A stretch of 64,000 nucleotides of DNA, from the NCBI GenBank assembly GCA_041664225.1, contig JBAYLE010000001.1, positions 132,939-196,938 of the forward strand. Reading direction: 5' to 3'. The notes beneath the pieces were generated by a model. That model had not been told where the DNA came from. It saw only the letters and a program-made list of their open reading frames with translations, and did not search any database. The translations under genes and the position numbers were made by a program. Below, one piece after another: positions 2,910-37,648 of the stretch; within the stretch, counting starts at the first letter, position 1; each line of letters begins with the position of its first letter. This DNA comes from Parcubacteria group bacterium. GTDB lineage: Bacteria > Patescibacteriota > Minisyncoccia > Moranbacterales > UBA2206.

Positions 2910-4598
2910 TTATTCTTTCACGACCTTGCCACCCATAATTTCCATGGCTGAAGCAAGGAGGGAATTTTGTTCTCCTGGTTTTTCTTCCTTTTTCACTTCT
3001 GTTTTGATGCCAGCTTCTTTATTGGTGACAGTTTTGAGTGTTATTTTCGACCCAAGAATTTTACCAAAAACATCTTCAACCGTCAATCGATTAGCTGGGT
3101 CGTTAAGTTTTTGTTTGTAAAAATCATATGGTGTGGCTAGGGTTATGACATTATTTTCAGCGGAAACAACCTGGCAGCCAAAAAGTAGGGCTTGCAAAGA
3201 ATGGTTAAGTGGCTTAACGGCTTCCAAAATTTTATTCCAATTGCTCTGAACATCATAAGTCAAAATTTGCTTATGATTTTTGTCTGTCGTTTTATTTTCT
3301 GGCTGCTCCATTGTTTCTTGTTTGGCCGAGTCTTTTGAATCTTGGTCATTGTTCGCCGCGGCGGATTGAATTTGTTTAGGATTTAGCCCCGAGTACTCGG
3401 GATCGGATTTAGGATTTTGTATGTTGATATCATTATTTGCAACGCTTTTATTGGATTGTTGCATGTTATATGCTTCATGTTTCATGATAGGAAAGGTATG
3501 CGTTGCTTTGATAATGGCAATTTCCAATGGCAGTTGCGGCAGCATAGATGAAGAAATTTTTCTTTGCGCGTCCATAAAAAGATTAATAGCGATGATTATT
3601 TTTTGTAGCTCGGTCTTTTTTGATTGTTCAATCATTTTTTCAATCTGCTCACTGGTAATTTCATACGCGAAAGAAGACCTGAGTTCCGGGCTGATCTTGA
3701 GGAGCATCAGTTGGCGCAGATAATTGACGAGGGATTTATTGAACACCTCCAGATCATAGCCATCATTCAAAAGATTATTTATTTTTTGAATAGCACCGGT
3801 CGAATCTTGATTGACAATCATCTCAGCAATTTCAAAGGCTTGTGTGCGGTCGGTGGTGCCCAAAATTTCCTCAACTTCTTTGATGGTGATGTTTTTATCT
3901 TCCAGGGCAATAACTTGTCCGAGCAAGGACTCCGCGTCGCGCATTCCGCCTTCGGCACTGAGCGCAATCATTTCCAATGAAGCCACATCAATTTTAATTT
4001 TTTCGTTTTTAGTGATGAGGATCAGTTTTTCGATAATATTTTGTATAGGCAGGCGTGCGAAATCAAAGCGCTGGCAGCGACTCAGGATGGTTTCCGGAAC
4101 TTTGTGGATTTCAGTGGTGGCTAGGATAAAAATAACGTGAGAAGGCGGTTCTTCCAAGGTTTTTAGAAGTGCGTTAAAGGCTCCGGCCGAAAGCATATGT
4201 ACTTCATCGATGATATAGACTTTGTATTTCAACGATGTCGGCGGCATGGCGATTGTCTCGCGCAATTCGCGTATATTGTCCACGCCAGTGTTGGAAGCGG
4301 CGTCGATCTCGATTATGTCTAAGGACCTGCCATCATTTATCATTTTGCAGACTGGGCAAGTTTCACAAGTGATTGCGTCTTTGGTATGCTCGCAGTTTAC
4401 GGTTTTGGCAAAAATCCGGGCGATGGAAGTTTTACCGGTTCCGCGCGGTCCTGTGAAAAGATAGGCTTGACCGACACGATTATTTTTTATGGCATTGGTA
4501 AGTGTTTGAACAATATGGCGCTGTCCAATTATTTCGGAGAAATTTCGGGGGCGATATTTACGGTAAAGGGTTGTTGATTCCATAGTCTTAGATTTCAA
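2910..4598 (-). CDS. dnaX: DNA polymerase III subunit gamma/tau
   Basis: N-terminus LYRKYRPRNFSEIIGQ, Walker A GPRGTGKTS, zinc module CETCPVC, and the SRC motif (ILSRCQRF). Confidence 0.95.
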   Translation of the reverse strand: MKSKTMESTTLYRKYRPRNFSEIIGQRHIVQTLTNAIKNNRVGQAYLFTGPRGTGKTSIARIFAKTVNCEHTKDAITCETCPVCKMINDGRSLDIIEIDAASNTGVDNIRELRETIAMPPTSLKYKVYIIDEVHMLSAGAFNALLKTLEEPPSHVIFILATTEIHKVPETILSRCQRFDFARLPIQNIIEKLILITKNEKIKIDVASLEMIALSAEGGMRDAESLLGQVIALEDKNITIKEVEEILGTTDRTQAFEIAEMIVNQDSTGAIQKINNLLNDGYDLEVFNKSLVNYLRQLMLLKISPELRSSFAYEITSEQIEKMIEQSKKTELQKIIIAINLFMDAQRKISSSMLPQLPLEIAIIKATHTFPIMKHEAYNMQQSNKSVANNDINIQNPKSDPEYSGLNPKQIQSAAANNDQDSKDSAKQETMEQPENKTTDKNHKQILTYDVQSNWNKILEAVKPLNHSLQALLFGCQVVSAENNVITLATPYDFYKQKLNDPANRLTVEDVFGKILGSKITLKTVTNKEAGIKTEVKKEEKPGEQNSLLASAMEIMGGKVVKE

Positions 4599-5365: not shown

Positions 5366-6133
5366 TTATAGATCAGTTTTATTAAGTTCTTTTTTTAACT
5401 CTTCCAAATCAGGCGCCCATTCGTCAAAAATGGAAGTATCCGGTTTGCTGGTTATGGAGTGGGCGATATTTTCTGTGTCATCGCGCAAACCTTTGTCGTG
5501 GGATAGGTTTTGGCGGAAGGTGTCATTTTCTCTAGCTTTTTGAATGACATTCTCAATAGAACCCCAATCAGAATCAATATCGCGCGGGGTCACTAGCGTT
5601 ACTTCATCTCCTGGCTCTACTTTGAAGTAGGTGATTGATGCCAATAAAACCCGATAGGGCTTGCCATCAGCAATAATAAAATAGTTTCCATCGGTATCCT
5701 GATTAACTATTCCAAGCAGCCTTCTTCTTTCAACCGGTCCGATTTGCTTGTAAATGAAAGAACCTTCTGACGTAATCGTCAGTTTCAACATATCTCCTTC
5801 GATAAGCTTTGATTTAGAAGCGTAATTAGCGGGAACAGGATATTGCTTTCCATCGTTCCCAATCATGATTTGTCCGTCAAAAGTTCCTTCAATGATTTTC
5901 CCATCCTCTCCATCTTCCATCGTTTTTCTTTTCCTTCCGACTTTTTTCTTTCCTTCCAATTGAAGAAGCATGGCTTTCGCGCCTTGGATGGTTTTCTCAG
6001 CGCTTTGGATCATTTCACGCAAAGCCTGAATTTTTTCAGGACTATTTTCGTTTTTTTCTTCGGTCATTTTTGTTTTTTGAATTTGTTTTTGTTTGCTCCC
6101 CATACGGGGAAACTCAACATCTAAATTATACAA
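5366..6133 (-). CDS. hypothetical protein
   Basis: 255 aa, charged N-terminus and a beta-rich middle region, no recognisable motif. Several in-frame Met starts, so the start is uncertain. Confidence 0.45.
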   Translation of the reverse strand: MYNLDVEFPRMGSKQKQIQKTKMTEEKNENSPEKIQALREMIQSAEKTIQGAKAMLLQLEGKKKVGRKRKTMEDGEDGKIIEGTFDGQIMIGNDGKQYPVPANYASKSKLIEGDMLKLTITSEGSFIYKQIGPVERRRLLGIVNQDTDGNYFIIADGKPYRVLLASITYFKVEPGDEVTLVTPRDIDSDWGSIENVIQKARENDTFRQNLSHDKGLRDDTENIAHSITSKPDTSIFDEWAPDLEELKKELNKTDL

Positions 6134-6824: not shown

Positions 6825-6895
6825 CGGGCTGTAGTATACCGGTAGTACGCGTCCATGGGGTGGATGTAGACCGGGTTCGATTCCCGGCAGCCCGA
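6825..6895 (+). tRNA. tRNA-Pro (anticodon GGG)
   Basis: Acceptor CGGGCUG/CAGCCCG, anticodon stem CGUCC/GGAUG with loop AUGGGGU (anticodon GGG), T-arm CCGGG-UUCGAUU-CCCGG. Confidence 0.85.
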
Positions 6896-6908
6896 CAAAG
6901 GTAATTTT

Positions 6909-6981
6909 GCGCTTGTAGCTCAGTGGATAGAGCGTCTGGTTCCGGTCCAGAAGGCCGCAGGTCCGATTCCTGCCAAGCGCA
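6909..6981 (+). tRNA. tRNA-Arg (anticodon CCG)
   Basis: Acceptor GCGCUUG/CAAGCGC, anticodon stem UCUGG/CCAGA with loop UUCCGGU (anticodon CCG), T-arm GCAGG-UCCGAUU-CCUGC. Confidence 0.9.
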
Positions 6982-6994
6982 CTAAAAAAAACAA

Positions 6995-7065
6995 GGGCCT
7001 ATAGTATAGTGGTAGAACGGTACATTCGCATTGTACAGGCGGCGGTTCGATTCCGCCTAGGTCCA
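6995..7065 (+). tRNA. tRNA-Ala (anticodon CGC)
   Basis: Acceptor GGGCCUA/UAGGUCC with the G3:U70 alanine identity pair, anticodon loop UUCGCAU (anticodon CGC), T-arm GGCGG-UUCGAUU-CCGCC. Confidence 0.9.
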
Positions 7066-7090
7066 CAAAATAAATAAAATTTTAAATTTT

Positions 7091-28790: not shown

Positions 28791-30062
28791 ATGAACAATA
28801 TTTTAGACGTATTTAGCCAATTTATACCAATCTTTCAAGCGCTGTCTCAATTCTGGTGGATTATTTTACCAGTGCTTTTGTATTTTATGTTTGAACAGCT
28901 TTGGATGGATTTTGTTATAGAATTTTCCAAAGATGCCTTTTTTGCCAAGCTGCAATGGACATATTTGGAAATTATCCCGCCCAAAGATATCGAGAAGGGC
29001 CCAAAGGGATTTGAGTCTTTGTATCAGGGCATTGCCGGTGTCGTGGTTACAATCGTTCCTCTGGATAAGTACTTAAATGGAACCCTCATGGACAGGTTCA
29101 GTTTTGAGATTGTGGGCGAAGAGGGCGTGATGCATTTTTATGTGCGCACCCAAAAGAAATTTAGAAATTTGATCGAAGCACAGCTTTACGCTCAATTCCC
29201 AGGCACGGAAATTGTTGAGGTTGAAGATTACACTCAAAAATTCCCCAAAACCGTTCCCAACAAGGACTGGGATTTGTGGGGGGCGGATATTATGTTTGCG
29301 GAGCCAGACGAACTTCCGATAAAAACCTATGACAAATTTGAAGAGGATATCACCGGCACTATGATTGACCCATTGGCGGCGATGGCGGAAGTCATTGGCA
29401 CTCTGGGCCCAGGACAGCATATCTGGTTGCAATACGTACTTGACCCTCAGCCTGAACTATGGAAGAAAGATGAAGCCCATAGAAAAATAATTGATCAGCT
29501 GGCGAAAAAAACGGAAAAGAAGGAAATGAATTTTTTTGACCACCTGATTGATGTTTTTTCGAATTTATTTAAGGCACTTTCCGGTCCGGTGGAATTCGCG
29601 TCGGCGGAAAAAAATGAAGACCAGCCACTGGAATTCAAATTGACGCCTGGAGAAAAGGAAGCATTAAAAGCGACAGAAGAGAATTTTATGCACAATTTTT
29701 TTCGAGTCAAGATGCGGCTTATAATTTTGGGTCGGCGGGAGGTTTTTGACAAGACCTTTATCACCGCTTTTTTTGGAACAATAAAACAATTCAGTGATTT
29801 GAATCTGAACAGTTTTAAGCCGGAAGATGCCAGCAAAACTTATGCTTATTATTGGATGCACAAAGAACGGTTGGTTTACCGGCAGAGAAAGATTTACCGC
29901 CGCTATCGCGACCGCGATATGACAGGCAAAACTATTTACATGTCTTCTAAGGAACTGGCGACTGTTTGGCATTTCCCGAATATGGAAGTTCAGGCGCCAT
30001 CGCTTACGCAGGTGCAAGCTAAGCGCGGTTCTGCTCCGGCTAATTTGCCCGTCGGGGAATAA
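28791..30062 (+). CDS. hypothetical membrane protein (2 N-terminal TM helices plus ~350-aa soluble domain)
   Basis: Hydrophobic N-terminus; immediately upstream of, and probably translationally coupled to, the TrwB/VirD4-like ATPase. Confidence 0.5.
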   Translation: MNNILDVFSQFIPIFQALSQFWWIILPVLLYFMFEQLWMDFVIEFSKDAFFAKLQWTYLEIIPPKDIEKGPKGFESLYQGIAGVVVTIVPLDKYLNGTLMDRFSFEIVGEEGVMHFYVRTQKKFRNLIEAQLYAQFPGTEIVEVEDYTQKFPKTVPNKDWDLWGADIMFAEPDELPIKTYDKFEEDITGTMIDPLAAMAEVIGTLGPGQHIWLQYVLDPQPELWKKDEAHRKIIDQLAKKTEKKEMNFFDHLIDVFSNLFKALSGPVEFASAEKNEDQPLEFKLTPGEKEALKATEENFMHNFFRVKMRLIILGRREVFDKTFITAFFGTIKQFSDLNLNSFKPEDASKTYAYYWMHKERLVYRQRKIYRRYRDRDMTGKTIYMSSKELATVWHFPNMEVQAPSLTQVQAKRGSAPANLPVGE

Positions 30063-30071
30063 ATAAAATCC

Positions 30072-32078
30072 ATGGCTGAAATTAATTTTTTTGCAAAAAC
30101 AAACTTTCGAAACCAAGAGCGCATTTTTGGCATTAAGCGTGATGACCGGCGGCGGCACATGTATGTGATCGGGAAGACTGGCATGGGTAAATCCAATATG
30201 CTAGAAAATATGGCTATCCAGGATATCCGCAATGGCGAGGGTGTTTGTGTTGTCGACCCGCATGGCGAATTCGCGGAAAAGATGCTCAGGGCCATACCTT
30301 CAAATCGAATCAATGACGTTATTTATTTCAATCCGTCAGACTCGGAATTTCCTATCGCTTTCAATATTTTGGAAGCAGTAGATGAGGACAAGAAAAATCT
30401 TATTGCCTCCGGCATGATGGGCGTTTTCAAAAAGATATGGCCGGACGTCTGGAGCGCGCGGATGGAATATATTTTAAATAATACTATTTTAGCACTGCTT
30501 GATTATCCCGGTTCGACGATGCTGGGAGTGAATCGTATGATGGCTGACAAGGACTATCGCAAGCGGGTGTATCCGAAAATCAAGGATCCGGTGGTTAAGT
30601 CTTTCTGGCTCAATGAATTTGACAAGTGGGATGATAAATTCCGCAAGGAAGCCGTGGCGGCCATCCAAAACAAAGTTGGACAATTTTTGTCATCCTCTGT
30701 TATCCGCCATATCGTCGGCCAGCCGAAATCAGCTATTGATATGCGCGACATCATGGATAATCAGAAAATCTTGATTATCAATTTATCAAAAGGCCGTATC
30801 GGGGAAGATTCAATGCGGCTTTTGGGTGGCATGATTGTTACCAAAATCCAGCTGGCAGCCATGGGCCGCGTAGAGATACCTGAAGAAGAAAGAAAGGATT
30901 TTTACCTGTATGTTGATGAATTCCAGAATTTTGCTACGGAATCGTTCGCCAATATTTTGTCAGAAGCCAGAAAGTACAAATTAAATTTGATTTTAGCCCA
31001 TCAATATATCAACCAGTTGATTTTTGACAGCAACACGACAGTGCGCGACGCGGTTTTTGGAAATGTGGGTACTATTATTTCCTTCCGGGTCGGTGCGGAA
31101 GATGCCGAGCATTTGGAAAAAGAATTTGATCCAGTTTTTTTGATGAATGATATTGTTAATCTTTCCAAGTATAATATTTATTTGAAATTGATGATTGATG
31201 GGGTGGCGGGCGATGCTTTTTCGGCCGCCTCTTTGCCGCCGTTGGATTTGTCGGATACGAAGGAAAGCGAAGAAAAGGTTATCCGCATTTCGCGCGAACG
31301 TTATGGAAAAAATCGTGCAGAAGTGGAAGATCGTATTGCCCGCTGGAGCGGTATGATAATGGAGGACACGGATGACGTGATAATTCATAAAGTAGAACCC
31401 GTTCGCAATGTTGTACCGAATATTGTAGTTGTGCCAAAAACTAAAAAAATTGTGGGCGATTCTGATTTGATCAATACTGTGCCGCCAGTCATCAAAGTTG
31501 TTCCGAAAAATCCCAAACCGGTGAGCGATGCCATTGTGGTTGAACCGGTTAAGCGGGCTGCGGTAGTCCAAAACGAAGTTGTGGATACTGCGAAAGATTC
31601 AATTATTATCACAGAAAAATCCAACATTGAACAAAAAGAAAAAAAAGAATTATATGAAACACTTTGCGATACTTGCGAACAAAAGATTTATGTTCCATTC
31701 AAGCCTGATCCAAATCGGCCGGCTTTTTGCAAGGAATGTCTGAAAGATTATCAGCGAGCGCTGGCGAAAGCGCGCAACCCGCAAGTCGCGAATGACCAAC
31801 AACAGCCGGTGAATAATCGACCTGCCCGCAATGTTGCGCATAGCGCTACGGGCGGACAACAACTAATAGTGGTAAAGAAACCCGAGACAGTTAAGTCAAG
31901 CGCAAGAGAAGAAGTGCGCAAGGTGTATGTTCCTCAAGATAAGCCCATGAGTTTGTCGCAAATGTCACACATTGCGCCGAAAAAATTTAAAGCGGTCAGA
32001 CAAAAGCCGCAGGTCAATCTGAATGATGTCAGGGATTTGATCAATAAGACGAAAAAAGATGATAGCAAACAAAATTAG
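30072..32078 (+). CDS. TrwB/TraD/VirD4-like P-loop NTPase (type IV coupling protein-like AAA domain) with C-terminal zinc ribbon
   Basis: Walker A VIGKTGMGKS, then VCVVDPHGE (the DPKGD-like motif of coupling proteins) and Walker B FYLYVDEFQNF. The C-terminus carries CDTCEQK...CKEC. The protein has no TM domain of its own. Confidence 0.6.
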   Translation: MAEINFFAKTNFRNQERIFGIKRDDRRRHMYVIGKTGMGKSNMLENMAIQDIRNGEGVCVVDPHGEFAEKMLRAIPSNRINDVIYFNPSDSEFPIAFNILEAVDEDKKNLIASGMMGVFKKIWPDVWSARMEYILNNTILALLDYPGSTMLGVNRMMADKDYRKRVYPKIKDPVVKSFWLNEFDKWDDKFRKEAVAAIQNKVGQFLSSSVIRHIVGQPKSAIDMRDIMDNQKILIINLSKGRIGEDSMRLLGGMIVTKIQLAAMGRVEIPEEERKDFYLYVDEFQNFATESFANILSEARKYKLNLILAHQYINQLIFDSNTTVRDAVFGNVGTIISFRVGAEDAEHLEKEFDPVFLMNDIVNLSKYNIYLKLMIDGVAGDAFSAASLPPLDLSDTKESEEKVIRISRERYGKNRAEVEDRIARWSGMIMEDTDDVIIHKVEPVRNVVPNIVVVPKTKKIVGDSDLINTVPPVIKVVPKNPKPVSDAIVVEPVKRAAVVQNEVVDTAKDSIIITEKSNIEQKEKKELYETLCDTCEQKIYVPFKPDPNRPAFCKECLKDYQRALAKARNPQVANDQQQPVNNRPARNVAHSATGGQQLIVVKKPETVKSSAREEVRKVYVPQDKPMSLSQMSHIAPKKFKAVRQKPQVNLNDVRDLINKTKKDDSKQN

Positions 32079-32250
32079 ATACGATAGTAAAATTCCCACC
32101 CATGTAGGTTTTATCTTCTTGCTGGTTTTTGGTTTGATTGTGGCTTTTATTACAATCAGGATGGGAGATAAAATAATTCAAGGCGCGCCTAATTCAAAAG
32201 CGCTTAGCGAAAATAGGCAATTGCAGCAGATGATTGAAAATACGAAATAA
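32059..32250 (+). CDS. hypothetical small membrane protein (63 aa)
   Basis: Overlaps the end of the ATPase gene; one TM helix; followed by a terminator. Confidence 0.35.
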   Translation: MIANKIRYDSKIPTHVGFIFLLVFGLIVAFITIRMGDKIIQGAPNSKALSENRQLQQMIENTK

Positions 32251-32325: not shown

Positions 32326-33423
32326 ATGGTTAAAAACAACAAAAAACGGGTGATTGTTGGGATGTCGAGCGGGGTAGATTCGTCGGTGGCGGCGGCGCTA
32401 CTCAAAAAACAAGGCTATGATGTCGTGGGCGTCTTTATGCATTTTTGGAAAGAGCCGACGCAGGACAGTTTGATTGAAAATAAATGCTGTTCTTTGGAAT
32501 CGTTTGAAGACGCGCGCAAAGTCTGCCAGATTTTAGGTATTCCGCTTTACACTGCCAACGCGGAGAAAGAATTCAAAAAAGAAGTGGTGGACTATTTTTT
32601 GTCTGAATACGCGGCCGGCCGGACACCCAATCCGTGTGTCGCTTGTAATGAACACATAAAATTCAACGTGCTTTTTAAAAAAATGCTAGAAATGAAAGGG
32701 GATTTTGTTGCTTCTGGACATTATGCTATCAAGAAGCAAGAAACAAAAAACAAGCAGCAAATAGTATACAAATTATTTCAAGGCAAGGATGAAGAAAAAG
32801 ATCAGTCTTATTTTTTATACAACTTCAATCAAAAACAACTGGCGAGAATTTTATTTCCAGTGGGCGGTTATAAAAAAGCACAAATCCGGGCAATGGCCAA
32901 GAAGATGAAATTGCCGGTTTTTAATAAAGATGATTCACAGGGGCTTTGCTTTACTCCGGAAAAATATCCGGAAAACTTTTTACGTCGAAATTTAAAACTC
33001 AAAAAGGGCAAAACACTGAATACTGCCGGAAAGATTGTGGGGACTCACGAAGGTTTGCCACTCTATACTATCGGCCAAAGGCGAGGCATCAACATCGGCG
33101 GAGACGGGCCGTATTATGTCGTGGATAAAGATATAAAAAAGGACATTCTGATTGTCACTAATGATGAAAAAGATCCGGCGCTTTTTCGCAAAGATATGGA
33201 GGTAAAAAAGGTGAATTGGATTATTTCAGAGCCAAAATTACCGGTTAAAGTATGGGTCAAAAACCGCTATCGTCATCCGGCCGTTTCTGCTATAATAAAG
33301 CCAAGGAAAGGCGAAATTTACCCAGTTGAATTCGCTGAACCGCAACGGGCAATCTCGCCGGGCCAATCGGCAGTGTTTTATAATTCCAAAGGAGAATTAT
33401 TGGGCGGGGGCAGGATAGTTTAG
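32326..33423 (+). CDS. mnmA: tRNA-specific 2-thiouridylase
   Basis: PP-loop VGMSSGVDSS and CVACNEH motifs. Confidence 0.9.
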   Translation: MVKNNKKRVIVGMSSGVDSSVAAALLKKQGYDVVGVFMHFWKEPTQDSLIENKCCSLESFEDARKVCQILGIPLYTANAEKEFKKEVVDYFLSEYAAGRTPNPCVACNEHIKFNVLFKKMLEMKGDFVASGHYAIKKQETKNKQQIVYKLFQGKDEEKDQSYFLYNFNQKQLARILFPVGGYKKAQIRAMAKKMKLPVFNKDDSQGLCFTPEKYPENFLRRNLKLKKGKTLNTAGKIVGTHEGLPLYTIGQRRGINIGGDGPYYVVDKDIKKDILIVTNDEKDPALFRKDMEVKKVNWIISEPKLPVKVWVKNRYRHPAVSAIIKPRKGEIYPVEFAEPQRAISPGQSAVFYNSKGELLGGGRIV

Positions 33424-33454: not shown

Positions 33455-33940
33455 TTGGAAATAAATTTGGAGGTTTATGCAAGAGAAAAGAAAAAAAGCA
33501 TGAAATCACGAGAAAATTATCAACTATCGCCAGAAGAAATAGAAAAAGCAGAGGATAATATGTCGGAAACGGAAAAAAGGTTATCTGAAATTAGAAATGT
33601 AAGTGTGGAAAATTTTAAAAGAAATACCGGTAAAAGTGGCATGTTGAACCTGCTGAATAAAGAGATGCCACGAATTGGAGATTTTAATGTGATAATGAGT
33701 AAATGGAAAATAGCGGGAGAAATTGAGGGTCATCAGATAGAATTAGTAGCTGATGCTGATCATGAAGATAATGACAGATTTTATAATTATAGAGGTCTAA
33801 TAGATGGAAAAGAATTAACAATGGAGGACGCCCAAATGCTTTGGGAGAAATATCATGCTTTCGCAGAAAAACTGAATCTGGAAGAAGAAGAGCTAAAAAA
33901 GCGTGCCCGGACAGAGAATGCGCTAAAAGACGTCCTTTAA
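33455..33940 (+). CDS. hypothetical protein (N-terminus paralogous to the next gene)
   Basis: ENYQLSPEEIEKAEDNMSETEKRLSEIRN aligns to ENYQPTLGEVEDAKENMTEKEKKSSEVRE of the downstream ORF. Confidence 0.45.
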   Translation: MEINLEVYAREKKKSMKSRENYQLSPEEIEKAEDNMSETEKRLSEIRNVSVENFKRNTGKSGMLNLLNKEMPRIGDFNVIMSKWKIAGEIEGHQIELVADADHEDNDRFYNYRGLIDGKELTMEDAQMLWEKYHAFAEKLNLEEEELKKRARTENALKDVL

Positions 33941-33965
33941 GGGTTATATTTGGGGAAGTAAAATT

Positions 33966-35108
33966 ATGGAATCACCAGAAAATTATCAGCCAACTCTCGG
34001 GGAAGTAGAAGATGCGAAAGAAAATATGACAGAGAAAGAAAAGAAAAGCTCGGAAGTCAGGGAGCAAAATTGGGAGCAGCAACAGCCACCGTGGGAAGAT
34101 TTTGGTGATAATGTTGATGAAAAAGGCTATAGAAAACCGCCAAAACCAGAAGATGAGAAAAAGATGAGGCAGAGAATCGTTGAATTAGGAGAGCTTTTTA
34201 AGGACGCTGATTTTAAATGGCATCTCGATGGTGCTATCAATATTTCATTAATGAAAGGCGAGTTTATCGGTGTCCATAAAGATGTTGATATTTCCGTTGA
34301 AAAGGCGGAGCTTTCAAAGCTAGACGATCATTTGGGGCAAAGGGGTTACGGACTATTTATTTCTTATCTTCCGAAAGGATCTGAAAATAAAATTTTGCGC
34401 AGAGTCGGAGCGGAAAATTTCGAAGTAACGACCGACGAAGCATTACAAATTGCGGCAATTGATGAAAATGGAAAATTAAAACAAGATAGGGAATTGAATT
34501 TTATCGACGTGCATATTATCAAGCGGAATGAAGATGGGGTTCAGCTAAGCAAGCACGGTAATGGCGTAGGATTGCCGCAAAGATGGTCCGAATCCCAGAC
34601 AACGGAATTTAAATCTGAAAAAATCAACTTGGCTCATCCCGCAGAAATTGCCTATTTCAAGTTGTGGCAGGAAAGAAATTACGATCTGACTGATTTACAT
34701 AAATTAGCGGAAAGCGGCAAATTAACCAATGAAGACATCAGTGAGGTTGAAAATATTATTGAAAAGGAATTTATTGAAAACAAAAAAAGAGGAAAGCATG
34801 GGATGGAAGATGTGGCTATTGAAATTACAGCGAATATGTCTGCGGATGAAATTTTAAATATTTTTTCCAAAAATCCAATTTTCAAGAGTGGTGTTGAAAA
34901 TTGGAGAGAAGTATTCAGTGAATTTACTGAAAAAATTGCGGAAAGTAAAGATAAATCTGCTGAGTTTATGTTTAATTTAGGTTTAAAATTTTTTAACGAG
35001 GAGGGCAGAAATAATATAATTCGGCAAAAGATTAAAATAGTCAGGCAGTGGATAAGGGAAGCGGAAAATTTGCAAGAAGTTCGTGACAAATTAAAAAATA
35101 ATTTATAA
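33966..35108 (+). CDS. hypothetical protein with Lnu(A)/ANT(2'')-like minimal nucleotidyltransferase core
   Basis: KWHLDGAINISLMKGEFIGVHKDVDISV matches the W-LDGG-x-G-x-H-x-D-I-D pattern of lincosamide / aminoglycoside-2'' nucleotidyltransferases. Long N- and C-terminal extensions. Confidence 0.45.
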   Translation: MESPENYQPTLGEVEDAKENMTEKEKKSSEVREQNWEQQQPPWEDFGDNVDEKGYRKPPKPEDEKKMRQRIVELGELFKDADFKWHLDGAINISLMKGEFIGVHKDVDISVEKAELSKLDDHLGQRGYGLFISYLPKGSENKILRRVGAENFEVTTDEALQIAAIDENGKLKQDRELNFIDVHIIKRNEDGVQLSKHGNGVGLPQRWSESQTTEFKSEKINLAHPAEIAYFKLWQERNYDLTDLHKLAESGKLTNEDISEVENIIEKEFIENKKRGKHGMEDVAIEITANMSADEILNIFSKNPIFKSGVENWREVFSEFTEKIAESKDKSAEFMFNLGLKFFNEEGRNNIIRQKIKIVRQWIREAENLQEVRDKLKNNL

Positions 35109-35119
35109 TTTTCCAATTT

Positions 35120-35419
35120 ATGCAAAATTTTTCAAATGATGATGCTAGCCAAGATGATGATGGAAAAGCAACTGCGCAGGACAAGGCCAGGCGAAAAAGC
35201 GAAATTCAGCGGGAAACAATTATGATTGAATCTGACTATCGAAAACTGGCTAATGAAAAAGCCAGTCTGGATATGGAAATCCGGCAGCTTAAAAAAGATG
35301 AGGCGCACATTAAGATTAACTTGCAAGAAAAACAGGCGAGGTTGGGCAAGGTTGAGTTCGAACTCTTACAACTGGATACGAATCTGAAAAGCCTAAAAAA
35401 GAAATTAAACTTGTTATAA
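35120..35419 (+). CDS. hypothetical coiled-coil protein
   Basis: 99 aa, heptad-rich. Confidence 0.4.
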   Translation: MQNFSNDDASQDDDGKATAQDKARRKSEIQRETIMIESDYRKLANEKASLDMEIRQLKKDEAHIKINLQEKQARLGKVEFELLQLDTNLKSLKKKLNLL

Positions 35420-35465
35420 TTTCGATTCCAAATAAATGGTTTTATAATTATTAAATTTTTAAAAT

Positions 35466-35738
35466 ATGTCACAATCAAAAATTGAAGACATTTTGGAAGA
35501 AGTTGTGAGGGGCAATGAAAAAGTGGAAAAATTGAGCGGTCGTTTTCACGCGGTTGAAAGTGAAATTGATAATATGGCCGGGAAGCCGGAAGCGGATTTA
35601 GATAAAATTTTACGTCGAGCCAAAGAACTTATTTACAGAGTCTTTGATGGTTATCATAGCAGTTTTTTGGACAGCAAGTGGTCTGGAATAGAAGATAAAA
35701 TAGAAAAAAACCTGAAAGATTTGAAAAATAATTTATGA
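35466..35738 (+). CDS. hypothetical protein
   Basis: 90 aa; its stop overlaps the alaS start (ATGA). Confidence 0.4.
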   Translation: MSQSKIEDILEEVVRGNEKVEKLSGRFHAVESEIDNMAGKPEADLDKILRRAKELIYRVFDGYHSSFLDSKWSGIEDKIEKNLKDLKNNL

Positions 35739-37648
35739 TCGCGCAGGAACTTCGTGAAAAATATTTGAAATTCTTTGAGTCGAAGGGACACACGATTATT
35801 CCTTCGGCTTCTTTGATTCCAGAAGGTACTGATCCTTCCGCCTTATTTATTACTGCGGGTATGCATCCTTTAGTGCCATATTTGATGGGAGAAAGCCATC
35901 CTGGGGGTGAGCGATTAGTCAGCGTTCAAAAGTGCATCCGGACAGATGATATTGAAGAGGTGGGGGATTCAACGCACAATACTTTTTTTGAGATGTTGGG
36001 CAACTGGTCATTGGGAGATTATTTTAAAAAAGAATCGATAGAATGGAGTTGGGAATTTTTAACTTCAAAAAAAGGATTAGGATTAAATCCAAAGAAAATA
36101 GCCGTTTCTGTTTTTGCCGGTGATGAGGACGCACCCAAAGATGAAGACGCAGCGAAAATTTGGCTTGAGGTTTCCAAATCGGAGCTTGAGGGCAGAATTG
36201 ATTATTTGCCAAAAGCAAAGAATTGGTGGGGTCCGGCTGGAATCACAGGACCATGCGGTCCGGACACAGAAATATTTTATTGGGTTGGCGATGGTCAAGT
36301 TCCGGAAAAAATTAATCAGGGAGATTTAGCTGAACATCCGCACTGGGTTGAGATTTGGAATAATGTTTTCATGCAATACAATAAAACTGCTGAAGGAAAA
36401 TATGAACCTTTAAAACAAAAAAATGTGGATACAGGAATGGGGCTGGAAAGGACTCTGGCGATAATCAATGGCGGGGATGATATTTATCAAACAGATTTAT
36501 TCCGACCGATTATTGAAAAAATTGAAAAAATATCCGGCCGTAAATATGAAAAAAAATTGAAAGAATTTAGAATTATTGCGGATCATCTTAAGGCGTCAGT
36601 TTTTGCAATTAATGACGGCGCAAGTCCATCCAATAAATTGGCGGGATATATTGTTCGGCGGTTGATCCGACGGGCGATTGTAAAAGCGCATCAGTTAGGC
36701 ATCAATGAAAATTTTTCTACCAAAATTGCGGAAAAAGTTTTTGGCATATACGACGGAGTCTATGAATTCAATAAGGAAAATATAATTCAGGAATTAGAGA
36801 AAGAAGAAAATAAATTCAAGAATATTTTAACTGATAAAAAAATTGCAAAAATTAAAAATGAGGAACTTGAAGAAAGATATAAAATATTATTTAAAGCGAA
36901 TGCGCTTATGTCTGGGATGACAAAAGAAAAAGCGGATAAATTATTAACAGAGAAGATTTTAACAGAAAGTACTCCAATTACTGCCTCGGCTTTTAAATTA
37001 GAATCTTCCTATGGATACCCTCATGATTTGTTTTTTAATGAATTATTTAATAAGCTTGATTTAGGCGAGGAGGAAAAAAAATGTTCGGGTAAAATATTAG
37101 AAGATAAATATCTAAACGAGGACTTTAAAAAACACCAAGAACTTTCACGTACCGCGTCATCAGGAATGTTTAAGGGCGGGCTGGCGGACGCGGGGGAAAT
37201 GACGGCGAAACTGCATACGGCCACCCACTTGCTTTTAGCGGCTTTACGGGAGGTTTTGGGATCCCATGTTTTTCAAAAAGGGTCAAATATTACGGCCGAA
37301 AGACTGCGCCTAGATTTCGCCCACAATGTGAAAATGACACCGGAAGAGCTTGAGAAAGCCCAAAATATGGTCAATGATATGATCCGCGAGGACGTGCTGA
37401 TCGCTTGCGATGAGATGAGTGTGGACGAAGCTAAAAAAGCCGGCGCGGTAGGAGTTTTTGAGGCAAAATACGGCGACAAAGTGAAAGTTTATACAATAGG
37501 CCCTTCGACAAGCTCAGGGTCGGCTTTCAGCCGGGAAATTTGCGGCGGCCCGCACGCCAAATCCACCGGCGAGCTTGGGCATTTTAAAATTATGAAAGAA
37601 GAAGCCTCTTCCGCTGGTGTGCGGAGAATCAAGGCGGTGTTAGAATAA
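35735..37648 (+). CDS. alaS: alanine--tRNA ligase (short form lacking C-terminal C-Ala/DHHA1 region)
   Basis: KCIRT-DIEEVGD, HNTFFEMLGNWSLGDYFK and the editing-domain HxxxH motif (HTATHLLLAAL); only 637 aa. Confidence 0.9.
   Translation: MIAQELREKYLKFFESKGHTIIPSASLIPEGTDPSALFITAGMHPLVPYLMGESHPGGERLVSVQKCIRTDDIEEVGDSTHNTFFEMLGNWSLGDYFKKESIEWSWEFLTSKKGLGLNPKKIAVSVFAGDEDAPKDEDAAKIWLEVSKSELEGRIDYLPKAKNWWGPAGITGPCGPDTEIFYWVGDGQVPEKINQGDLAEHPHWVEIWNNVFMQYNKTAEGKYEPLKQKNVDTGMGLERTLAIINGGDDIYQTDLFRPIIEKIEKISGRKYEKKLKEFRIIADHLKASVFAINDGASPSNKLAGYIVRRLIRRAIVKAHQLGINENFSTKIAEKVFGIYDGVYEFNKENIIQELEKEENKFKNILTDKKIAKIKNEELEERYKILFKANALMSGMTKEKADKLLTEKILTESTPITASAFKLESSYGYPHDLFFNELFNKLDLGEEEKKCSGKILEDKYLNEDFKKHQELSRTASSGMFKGGLADAGEMTAKLHTATHLLLAALREVLGSHVFQKGSNITAERLRLDFAHNVKMTPEELEKAQNMVNDMIREDVLIACDEMSVDEAKKAGAVGVFEAKYGDKVKVYTIGPSTSSGSAFSREICGGPHAKSTGELGHFKIMKEEASSAGVRRIKAVLE

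Follow-up and report, generated by a model that had tools for sequence, protein, structure and literature searches.

This 64,000-nucleotide (nt) stretch of contig JBAYLE010000001.1 from the metagenome-assembled genome of a Parcubacteria group bacterium, which we call the window, carries four open reading frames (ORF1 to ORF4) between mnmA and alaS, and we propose, with slightly better than even confidence, that they belong to two unrelated units. ORF3 and ORF4 would form a block with alaS, and ORF1 and ORF2 would be cargo, ORF2 being a stand-alone nucleotidyltransferase of the PF10706 type whose acceptor is not a nucleic acid. An earlier note, a model's reading of the letters of this DNA, had described the four ORFs as one lineage-specific cluster in which ORF1 and ORF2 share an N-terminal segment, hereafter the N-module. 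All four ORFs were found to be present on the + strand, and the locus is laid out as follows.

32326-33423, + strand: mnmA, 365 amino acids (aa).
33500-33940, + strand: ORF1, 146 aa; gene callers also start it at TTG 33455 (161 aa) or at 33467.
33503-33613, + strand: N-module of ORF1, residues 2-38.
33966-35108, + strand: ORF2, 380 aa, three-part PF10706-type nucleotidyltransferase.
33969-34079, + strand: N-module of ORF2, residues 2-38, homologous to that of ORF1.
ORF2 residues 38-68, + strand: family-specific linker carrying a Q-x-x-P-P-W-E-D-F motif.
34170-34715, + strand: nucleotidyltransferase core of ORF2, residues 69-250, equivalent to full-length LnuA.
34716-35105, + strand: all-helical C-terminal domain of ORF2, residues 251-380, by AlphaFold2 (AF2) secondary structure.
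35120-35419, + strand: ORF3, 99 aa, coiled-coil protein.
35466-35738, + strand: ORF4, 90 aa, helical protein.
35735-37648, + strand: alaS, 637 aa, with domains tRNA-synt_2c and tRNA_SAD.

The assignment of ORF2, which is 100% identical to WCX17_00940, to the minimal nucleotidyltransferases of the Lnu(A)/ANT(2'') type agrees with the earlier note and is based on Pfam, on matches to LnuA and on structure comparison with Foldseek. The protein matches PF10706 (Aminoglyc_resit) with 33.6 bits, above the Pfam gathering cut-off of 21 (E 5.3e-8), as well as LnuA (4fo1), with E 7e-4 for the ORF2 sequence alone and E 1.8e-6 for the family profile. Its homologs make up 59 clusters in Patescibacteria, nearly all of 360-390 aa, with named members in Uhrbacteria, Falkowbacteria and unclassified Parcubacteria or Patescibacteria bins. 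PF10706 was matched by 27/27 aligned relatives at E <= 0.1 (best 3.5e-9), and in the 27-member alignment residues D88, G89, A90, N92, S94, H104, K105, D106, D108, S110, D181, H183, K232, R237, Y239, D240 and D243 are invariant, including the catalytic Asp and His residues that had been pointed out beforehand. The invariant residues include the polymerase-beta-type catalytic motifs h-G-[GSA] (G89-A90) and D-x-D (D106, D108) and a third carboxylate (D181). The nucleotidyltransferase signature is real, but its first part reads W-H-L-D-G-A and not W-LDGG as first given. In the H104-K105-D106-x-D108 motif (34281-34289) the two Asp residues align with H-R-D-I-D-I of LnuA, and D181 and H183 (D181-x-H183, 34506-34514) align with its L-D-I-H. 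Judging from these sequences, ORF2 is probably an active enzyme that attaches nucleotides.

The AF2 model of ORF2 (predicted local distance difference test, pLDDT, 91.8; predicted template modelling score, pTM, 0.86) consists of an N-terminal helical hairpin (residues 11-34), the linker, an alpha/beta core (~69-250) and a 130-residue helical C-terminal domain. Foldseek against PDB aligned only the core, over ~200 columns, with MenT1 (8an5_B, E 6.2e-5), LnuA (4fo1, 1.2e-4), FKRP (5e-4), TM1012 (6e-4) and ANT(2'')-Ia (4xje, 5e-3); target-normalised template modelling scores were ~0.5-0.66 for MenT1 (0.61), LnuA (0.66), TM1012 and ANT(2'') (0.62). MenT1 (Rv0078A), which like ORF2 has a polymerase-beta-type metal site, is thus the best structural match of the core, but this match, which covers the core only, does not discriminate ORF2 from LnuA.

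Lnu(A) and ANT(2'')-Ia are compact single units of ~160-180 aa that have in common with ORF2 the catalytic core, with h-D-G-[GA], H-[KR]-D-[IV]-D-I and a third Asp in [FL]-[IL]-D-[IV]-H, as well as a Y-D-L-T motif in the helical half. ORF2, with its 380 aa, adds the 37-residue N-module, the Q-PPWEDF linker and the helical C-terminal domain, and N92, S94, S110, K232 and R237 are invariants specific to its family. These additions (~68 N-terminal and 130 C-terminal residues compared with an enzyme of LnuA size) are conserved across the ORF2 family. Extra parts at both ends had been noticed before, but as the LnuA-equivalent region reaches approximately residue 250, the C-terminal one measures ~130 aa (251-380) rather than ~200. 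No relative of this domain was detectable outside the ORF2 family; its likeness to ORF3 or ORF4 (ORF2 and ORF4 both end in L-K-N-N-L) was dismissed as chance, as no BLASTP match was significant. ORF2 is an uncharacterised enzyme that adds a new domain architecture to a known fold family.

As the earlier note had stated, no described system was matched, since PADLOC, PHROGs and NCBIfam gave nothing above threshold. In particular, PADLOC, whose models cover CBASS and other anti-phage systems with a nucleotidyltransferase, had no match to ORF2 at E <= 1 and only chance-level matches to ORF1 and ORF3 (E ~0.03), and PHROGs had no match in the four-gene region. Both the ORF2 enzyme and the N-module are absent from IMG/VR viral contigs, which together with the lack of PHROG matches ruled out a phage origin. 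In the literature we found no paper on the ORF2 family, the ORF1 family or the N-module, only general resistome surveys and papers on MenT.

The N-terminal motif that ORF1 and ORF2 were said to have in common is also real and above chance. BLASTP of the two N-termini gave 17/32 identical residues (E 3e-7), and profile-profile comparison of the two families (hhalign) aligned only 37 columns, residues 2-38 (probability 97.4%, E 1e-11); moreover, a hidden Markov model (HMM) built from ORF1-type proteins alone matched N-termini of the enzyme family with E down to 3e-12. The motif reads E-x-Y-x-P-[ST]-x-E-E-[IVM]-x-K-A-E-x-x-M-[ST]-x-x-[QE]-[KR]-x-x-S-E-x-R, with a predicted helix at residues 11-19 and a second helix after it. 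In the DNA, a direct repeat of 83 nt (33494-33576 and 33960-34042, 71% identical) begins just before each ATG.

The earlier note had taken the segment for a local paralogy, and here the results point elsewhere. Recent local duplication or gene conversion was ruled out, because the N-module of P0069, a protein from another genome, has 18/32 residues in common with that of ORF2, compared with 17/32 for ORF1's own (both by residue count), and because the ORF1 and ORF2 modules each follow the consensus of their own family. Carriers of the module stand side by side in no other locus examined and the contexts of the ORF1-type genes P0078 and P0061 are unrelated, which argues that the module is old and common to the two families. 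Results showed that it is shared by two widespread families and by a minimum of one or two other architectures: in P0122 it precedes a domain of receiver type (27.9 bits for Response_reg, slightly below the cut-off of 30.2), and in P0107 a different domain without assignment. In distant enzyme clades (P0057-P0059, P0054) it is missing or replaced and the rest of the protein is kept. A search of the window plus 585 kb of related loci with an HMM of the N-module returned the expected proteins only and no further carriers.

We also looked at ORF1 itself. Its start had been put at TTG 33455, but ATG 33500 is most likely the true one, since the similarity to ORF2, in protein as in DNA, begins there, and so do the N-termini of the homologs P0061 and P0069; ORF1 relatives begin with M-x-S-F-E-[KN]-Y at this position. 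This start places the N-module at the extreme N-terminus of both ORF1 and ORF2. A word-indexed search returned a single non-self relative, P0061 (47% identical), and the exhaustive search with an HMM of ORF1 and P0061 returned 57 proteins at E <= 1e-3. Most of these proteins have 130-200 aa and consist of the N-module and a C-terminal domain with the motifs G-x-I-[ND]-G-H-x-[IV] and G-[ST]-[IV]-D-G-x-x-L-[ST]-x-[ED]-[ED]-A-x-x-L-[WY]-x-K-Y, often followed by a tail such as L-K-D-I-L; one named member comes from Moranbacteria. None of 47 members had a Pfam match. The AF2 model of ORF1 (pLDDT 90.5, pTM 0.75) shows two helices, a four-stranded sheet and a long C-terminal helix, a fold without significant Foldseek match (best E 0.13 for PDB, 0.02 for BFVD). 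The ORF1 family appears to be a remote, separate family of small proteins and, like the N-module, is apparently undescribed.

The picture of a nucleotidyltransferase with small partner proteins in one cluster was not borne out by the neighbourhoods. We considered genes within 8 kb of the enzyme in 32 species-representative loci and others, ~33 besides the window, and in none of them was a relative of ORF1, ORF3 or ORF4 present; clustering of the neighbours yielded no recurrent partner. Conversely, the ORF1-type genes P0078 and P0061 lie in unrelated contexts without an enzyme gene, and P0061 adjoins a murE-like gene and a gene for a 446-aa protein without assigned function. Enzyme loci, ORF1 relatives and the ORF3-ORF4-alaS block thus occur apart in related genomes, scattered and unlinked, which is the very outcome that the note had named as contrary to its proposal, and this lack of synteny rules out a four-gene operon or system. 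The description as lineage-specific holds for ORF3 and ORF4 but not for ORF2, which is found across Patescibacteria, nor for ORF1, with more than 50 remote relatives.

Among the varied neighbours of the enzyme gene, identified by eye, are yebC/ruvC and genes for peroxiredoxin, DNA polymerase I and ribosomal proteins, and translational coupling of the enzyme gene to genes of housekeeping or biosynthesis is frequent. The few recurring themes, mostly links to glycan synthesis, concern a minority of loci. In the two closest ORF2 homologs the gene is preceded at 26 bp by a GT2 glycosyltransferase gene, a Wzx-Wzy-methyltransferase group stands directly upstream of the enzyme in L006/L007, Wzx and Wzy genes are found within 8 kb in 4 loci (among them L010, L022 and L034), and in 4 loci an S-adenosylmethionine (SAM) methyltransferase gene immediately upstream overlaps or abuts the enzyme gene.

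Around the window locus itself, two related loci were informative. In L042, whose mnmA is 84% identical, a CaCA antiporter gene and a gene for a 165-aa protein replace ORF1 and ORF2 between mnmA and ORF3, and in L047 yet other genes occupy this slot, and both retain ORF3 and ORF4 upstream of alaS. The GC content at third codon positions (GC3) is 0.29 for ORF1 and 0.34 for ORF2, compared with 0.42 +/- 0.04 for the other genes of the window. Together with the variable slot, this low GC3 suggests that ORF1 and ORF2 are accessory cargo. They are on the same strand with a gap of 25 nt.

ORF4 directly precedes alaS in 3/3 lineages examined (window, L042, L047); in L042 a PNPOx-like gene is inserted and a 178-nt gap lies ahead of alaS. 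In the window the stop of ORF4 and the start of alaS overlap as ATGA at 35735-35738, which agrees with the coupling stated in the earlier note. ORF4 has six non-self homologs of 68-80% identity, and the ratio of nonsynonymous to synonymous substitution rates (0.04 for ORF3, 0.06-0.15 for ORF4) indicates purifying selection. The spacers before ORF3 (35102-35135) and ORF4 (35441-35474) have a common TTTATAATT box 10-17 nt ahead of the ATG and no obvious Shine-Dalgarno sequence, and the two transcripts may be near-leaderless. The alaS product, with 637 aa, is shorter than the usual bacterial alanyl-tRNA synthetase.

Several enzyme loci carry further features of their own. In L015 (7207-9525) the enzyme gene sits between yebC-like and ruvC-like genes (by eye) with gaps of -4 and +4 nt, which is another insertion into a housekeeping operon. 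CYTH-like (triphosphate tunnel) proteins, also recognised by eye, adjoin the enzyme gene in L024 (3097-3657), L025 (9113-9694) and L036 (7313-7861), the first two clustering together and the third apart. In L003, from Falkowbacteria, three GC-rich copies of a ~194-nt element (3092-3285, 3915-4108 and 5448-5659) lie just upstream of the enzyme homolog. The copies are 88-99% identical, and the element is also present in L001, L002 and L014 and absent from the window. One copy has a folding energy of -98.7 kcal/mol (z-score -9.1 compared with shuffled sequences) and no Rfam match; the element may represent either a structured RNA or a miniature mobile element. Finally, the GT2 glycosyltransferase upstream of the closest enzyme homolog (L051, 2-1459) and the 446-aa protein downstream of the ORF1 homolog (L008, 4837-6177) have a ~60-residue helical segment in common (BLASTP E 4e-9), which differs from the N-module and is followed by unrelated domains, so that lineage-specific proteins here share a module for the second time.

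Considering these results together, we suggest the following account. ORF3-ORF4-alaS would be a small conserved block of a genus-level lineage, with ORF3 and ORF4 as real, selected helical proteins, and ORF1 and ORF2 would be accessory cargo in the variable slot between mnmA and this block. ORF1 would belong to a separate family that has only the ancient 37-residue helical N-module in common with ORF2, their adjacency being peculiar to the window genome. By homology with the PF10706 family, D106 and D108 of ORF2 would hold two Mg2+ ions on a nucleoside triphosphate, K232 and R237 would bind its phosphates and D181 would act as general base, deprotonating an acceptor hydroxyl; this hydroxyl would then attack the alpha-phosphate, yielding a nucleoside monophosphate (NMP) linked through oxygen to the acceptor, and pyrophosphate. 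The acceptor would be a small molecule or a glycan, which we favour over RNA because the family is acidic (median isoelectric point, pI, 5.3), no conserved antitoxin-like partner was found and several relatives lie in glycan-synthesis operons.

A number of points weigh against this account. The catalytic competence of ORF2 is a prediction from sequence and model, and as the top Foldseek match is MenT1, a tRNA-modifying toxin, the acceptor may be RNA. The links to glycan genes concern a minority of loci (~6/35), and none is found in the window. Among ~40 module-carrying loci, only the window has two carriers side by side, and as such adjacency is unlikely by chance if carriers are few per genome, a functional link between ORF1 and ORF2 is possible. 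Moreover, the low GC3 of the two genes could come from low expression and not from recent acquisition.

Such a link would follow from an alternative that we consider rather unlikely, in which the N-module is an undescribed docking or targeting tag specific to Patescibacteria, its carriers being clients of one common partner or site, and ORF1 and ORF2 would be linked through it, either by the same partner or by pairing. The adjacency in the window fits this idea, as do the position of the module at the extreme N-terminus of nearly all carriers, its presence ahead of at least three unrelated domains (the nucleotidyltransferase, the ORF1-type domain and the Response_reg domain of P0122, with P0107 as a further one) and its separability in the enzyme clades that lack it and keep the remainder. 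Encapsulation peptides of microcompartments and cargo-loading peptides of encapsulins are likewise short conserved helical segments at the termini of unrelated proteins. The N-module, with its 37 residues and two helices, is longer than they are, carries much charge, is modelled within the fold and lacks linked shell, secretion or partner genes, so that the comparison is one of resemblance only. None of the carriers has a conserved neighbour that could be such a partner, no similarity to a known targeting signal was found, and AF2 places the module within each protein with fair to high confidence (pLDDT 77-95, pTM 0.75-0.86), which would equally fit a structural cap.

The glycan-synthesis neighbours bring in another possibility, an improbable one in our view, that ORF2 is a phospho-alcohol transferase like LicD or FKRP, which would decorate a cell-envelope glycan from a cytidine diphosphate (CDP)-activated donor with no NMP transfer. 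LicD/FKRP proteins have a nucleotidyltransferase-fold domain with DxD, the catalytic domain of FKRP is matched by Foldseek at E 5e-4, and the glycosyltransferase, Wzx-Wzy and methyltransferase genes described above would suit such a role. However, the structural match is weaker than those to LnuA or MenT1, the LicD Pfam model matches 0/27 family members compared with 27/27 for PF10706, most loci have unrelated neighbours, the window has no glycan genes near ORF2, and ORF2, from its sequence, has neither a signal peptide nor a membrane segment. It seems very unlikely to us that ORF2 inactivates antibiotics by adenylylating a lincosamide or an aminoglycoside, as Lnu(A) or ANT(2'')-Ia do, even if these are the closest sequence relatives of ORF2 and an acidic protein is what would be expected for binding a cationic drug. 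Genes resembling antibiotic-resistance genes are also reportedly common in genomes of the candidate phyla radiation (PMC8651080). ORF2 has ~18% identity to LnuA, in the catalytic core only, its substrate-binding C-terminal half is marginally similar (second-domain E 17-42), ~200 extra residues are packed around the core, and its scores with the NCBIfam Lnu models are 22-28 bits, far below their cut-offs of 300-350 (NF000153, 27.8 against 340; NF000236, 23.2 against 300; NF000478, 21.9 against 350). A role in drug resistance is thus possible but unsupported beyond the core. We give still less credence to a MenAT/AbiE-type pair for toxin-antitoxin action or abortive infection, in which ORF2 would extend tRNA 3' ends and block translation and ORF1 would neutralise it. 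MenT1 is indeed the top structural match, alone and with MenA1 (E 6e-5), and ORF1 is a small acidic protein encoded just upstream; the pair occupies a variable slot and its GC3 is low. MenT/AbiEii toxins are recognised by a DUF1814 domain with C-terminal motifs III and IV (PMC10435456). DUF1814 (PF08843) did not match ORF2 at E <= 10 nor any of the 27 relatives at E <= 0.1, and PADLOC gave no match either. Unlike these toxins, ORF2 has extra domains and no conserved adjacent antitoxin, with no conserved small neighbour in the ~33 loci and the enzyme gene often in translational coupling with genes of housekeeping or biosynthesis; ORF1-type genes are found elsewhere on their own, the enzyme family is acidic rather than basic, its median pI being atypical for a tRNA binder, and it is absent from viral contigs. 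A reading as toxin-antitoxin or defence system is therefore poorly supported, and a stand-alone nucleotidyltransferase carried as cargo, with a small molecule or glycan as its acceptor, is the reading that we retain.

The remainder of the window provides the setting. The other genes are housekeeping (malic enzyme, PCMT, YceG, carbamoyltransferase, DHODH, rpsD, rpoA), and no Rfam RNA family or ARAGORN tRNA was found in the ORF1-ORF4 region. Elsewhere in the window there are a cluster of tRNA-Pro, tRNA-Arg and tRNA-Ala and an opposite-strand tRNA-Gln (6825-7066 and 2832-2904). Just upstream of mnmA lies a gene for a coupling ATPase of the VirD4/TrwB type (30072-32078), which ends in a treble-clef zinc finger. 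Before it stands a gene for a 423-aa protein, whose sole match is PHROG 5156 (function unknown, E 5.6e-14), and the end of the ATPase gene is overlapped by a 63-aa ORF that is apparently hydrophobic by sequence (region 28791-32250).

Patescibacteria have tiny genomes that encode largely proteins of no known function. In this context, we have defined a conserved nucleotidyltransferase family of three parts whose active site is intact, a small-protein family without known fold and an N-module that links the two with each other and with further proteins, all of which are testable handles on this protein content. As it stands, this is a useful annotation that holds no surprise, and the role of the module is a thread worth following. 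If the module were a docking or targeting device, it would represent an unrecognised organising principle in the cells of Patescibacteria, and if ORF2 modified a drug or a surface glycan, it would bear on the survival of these symbionts next to their hosts.

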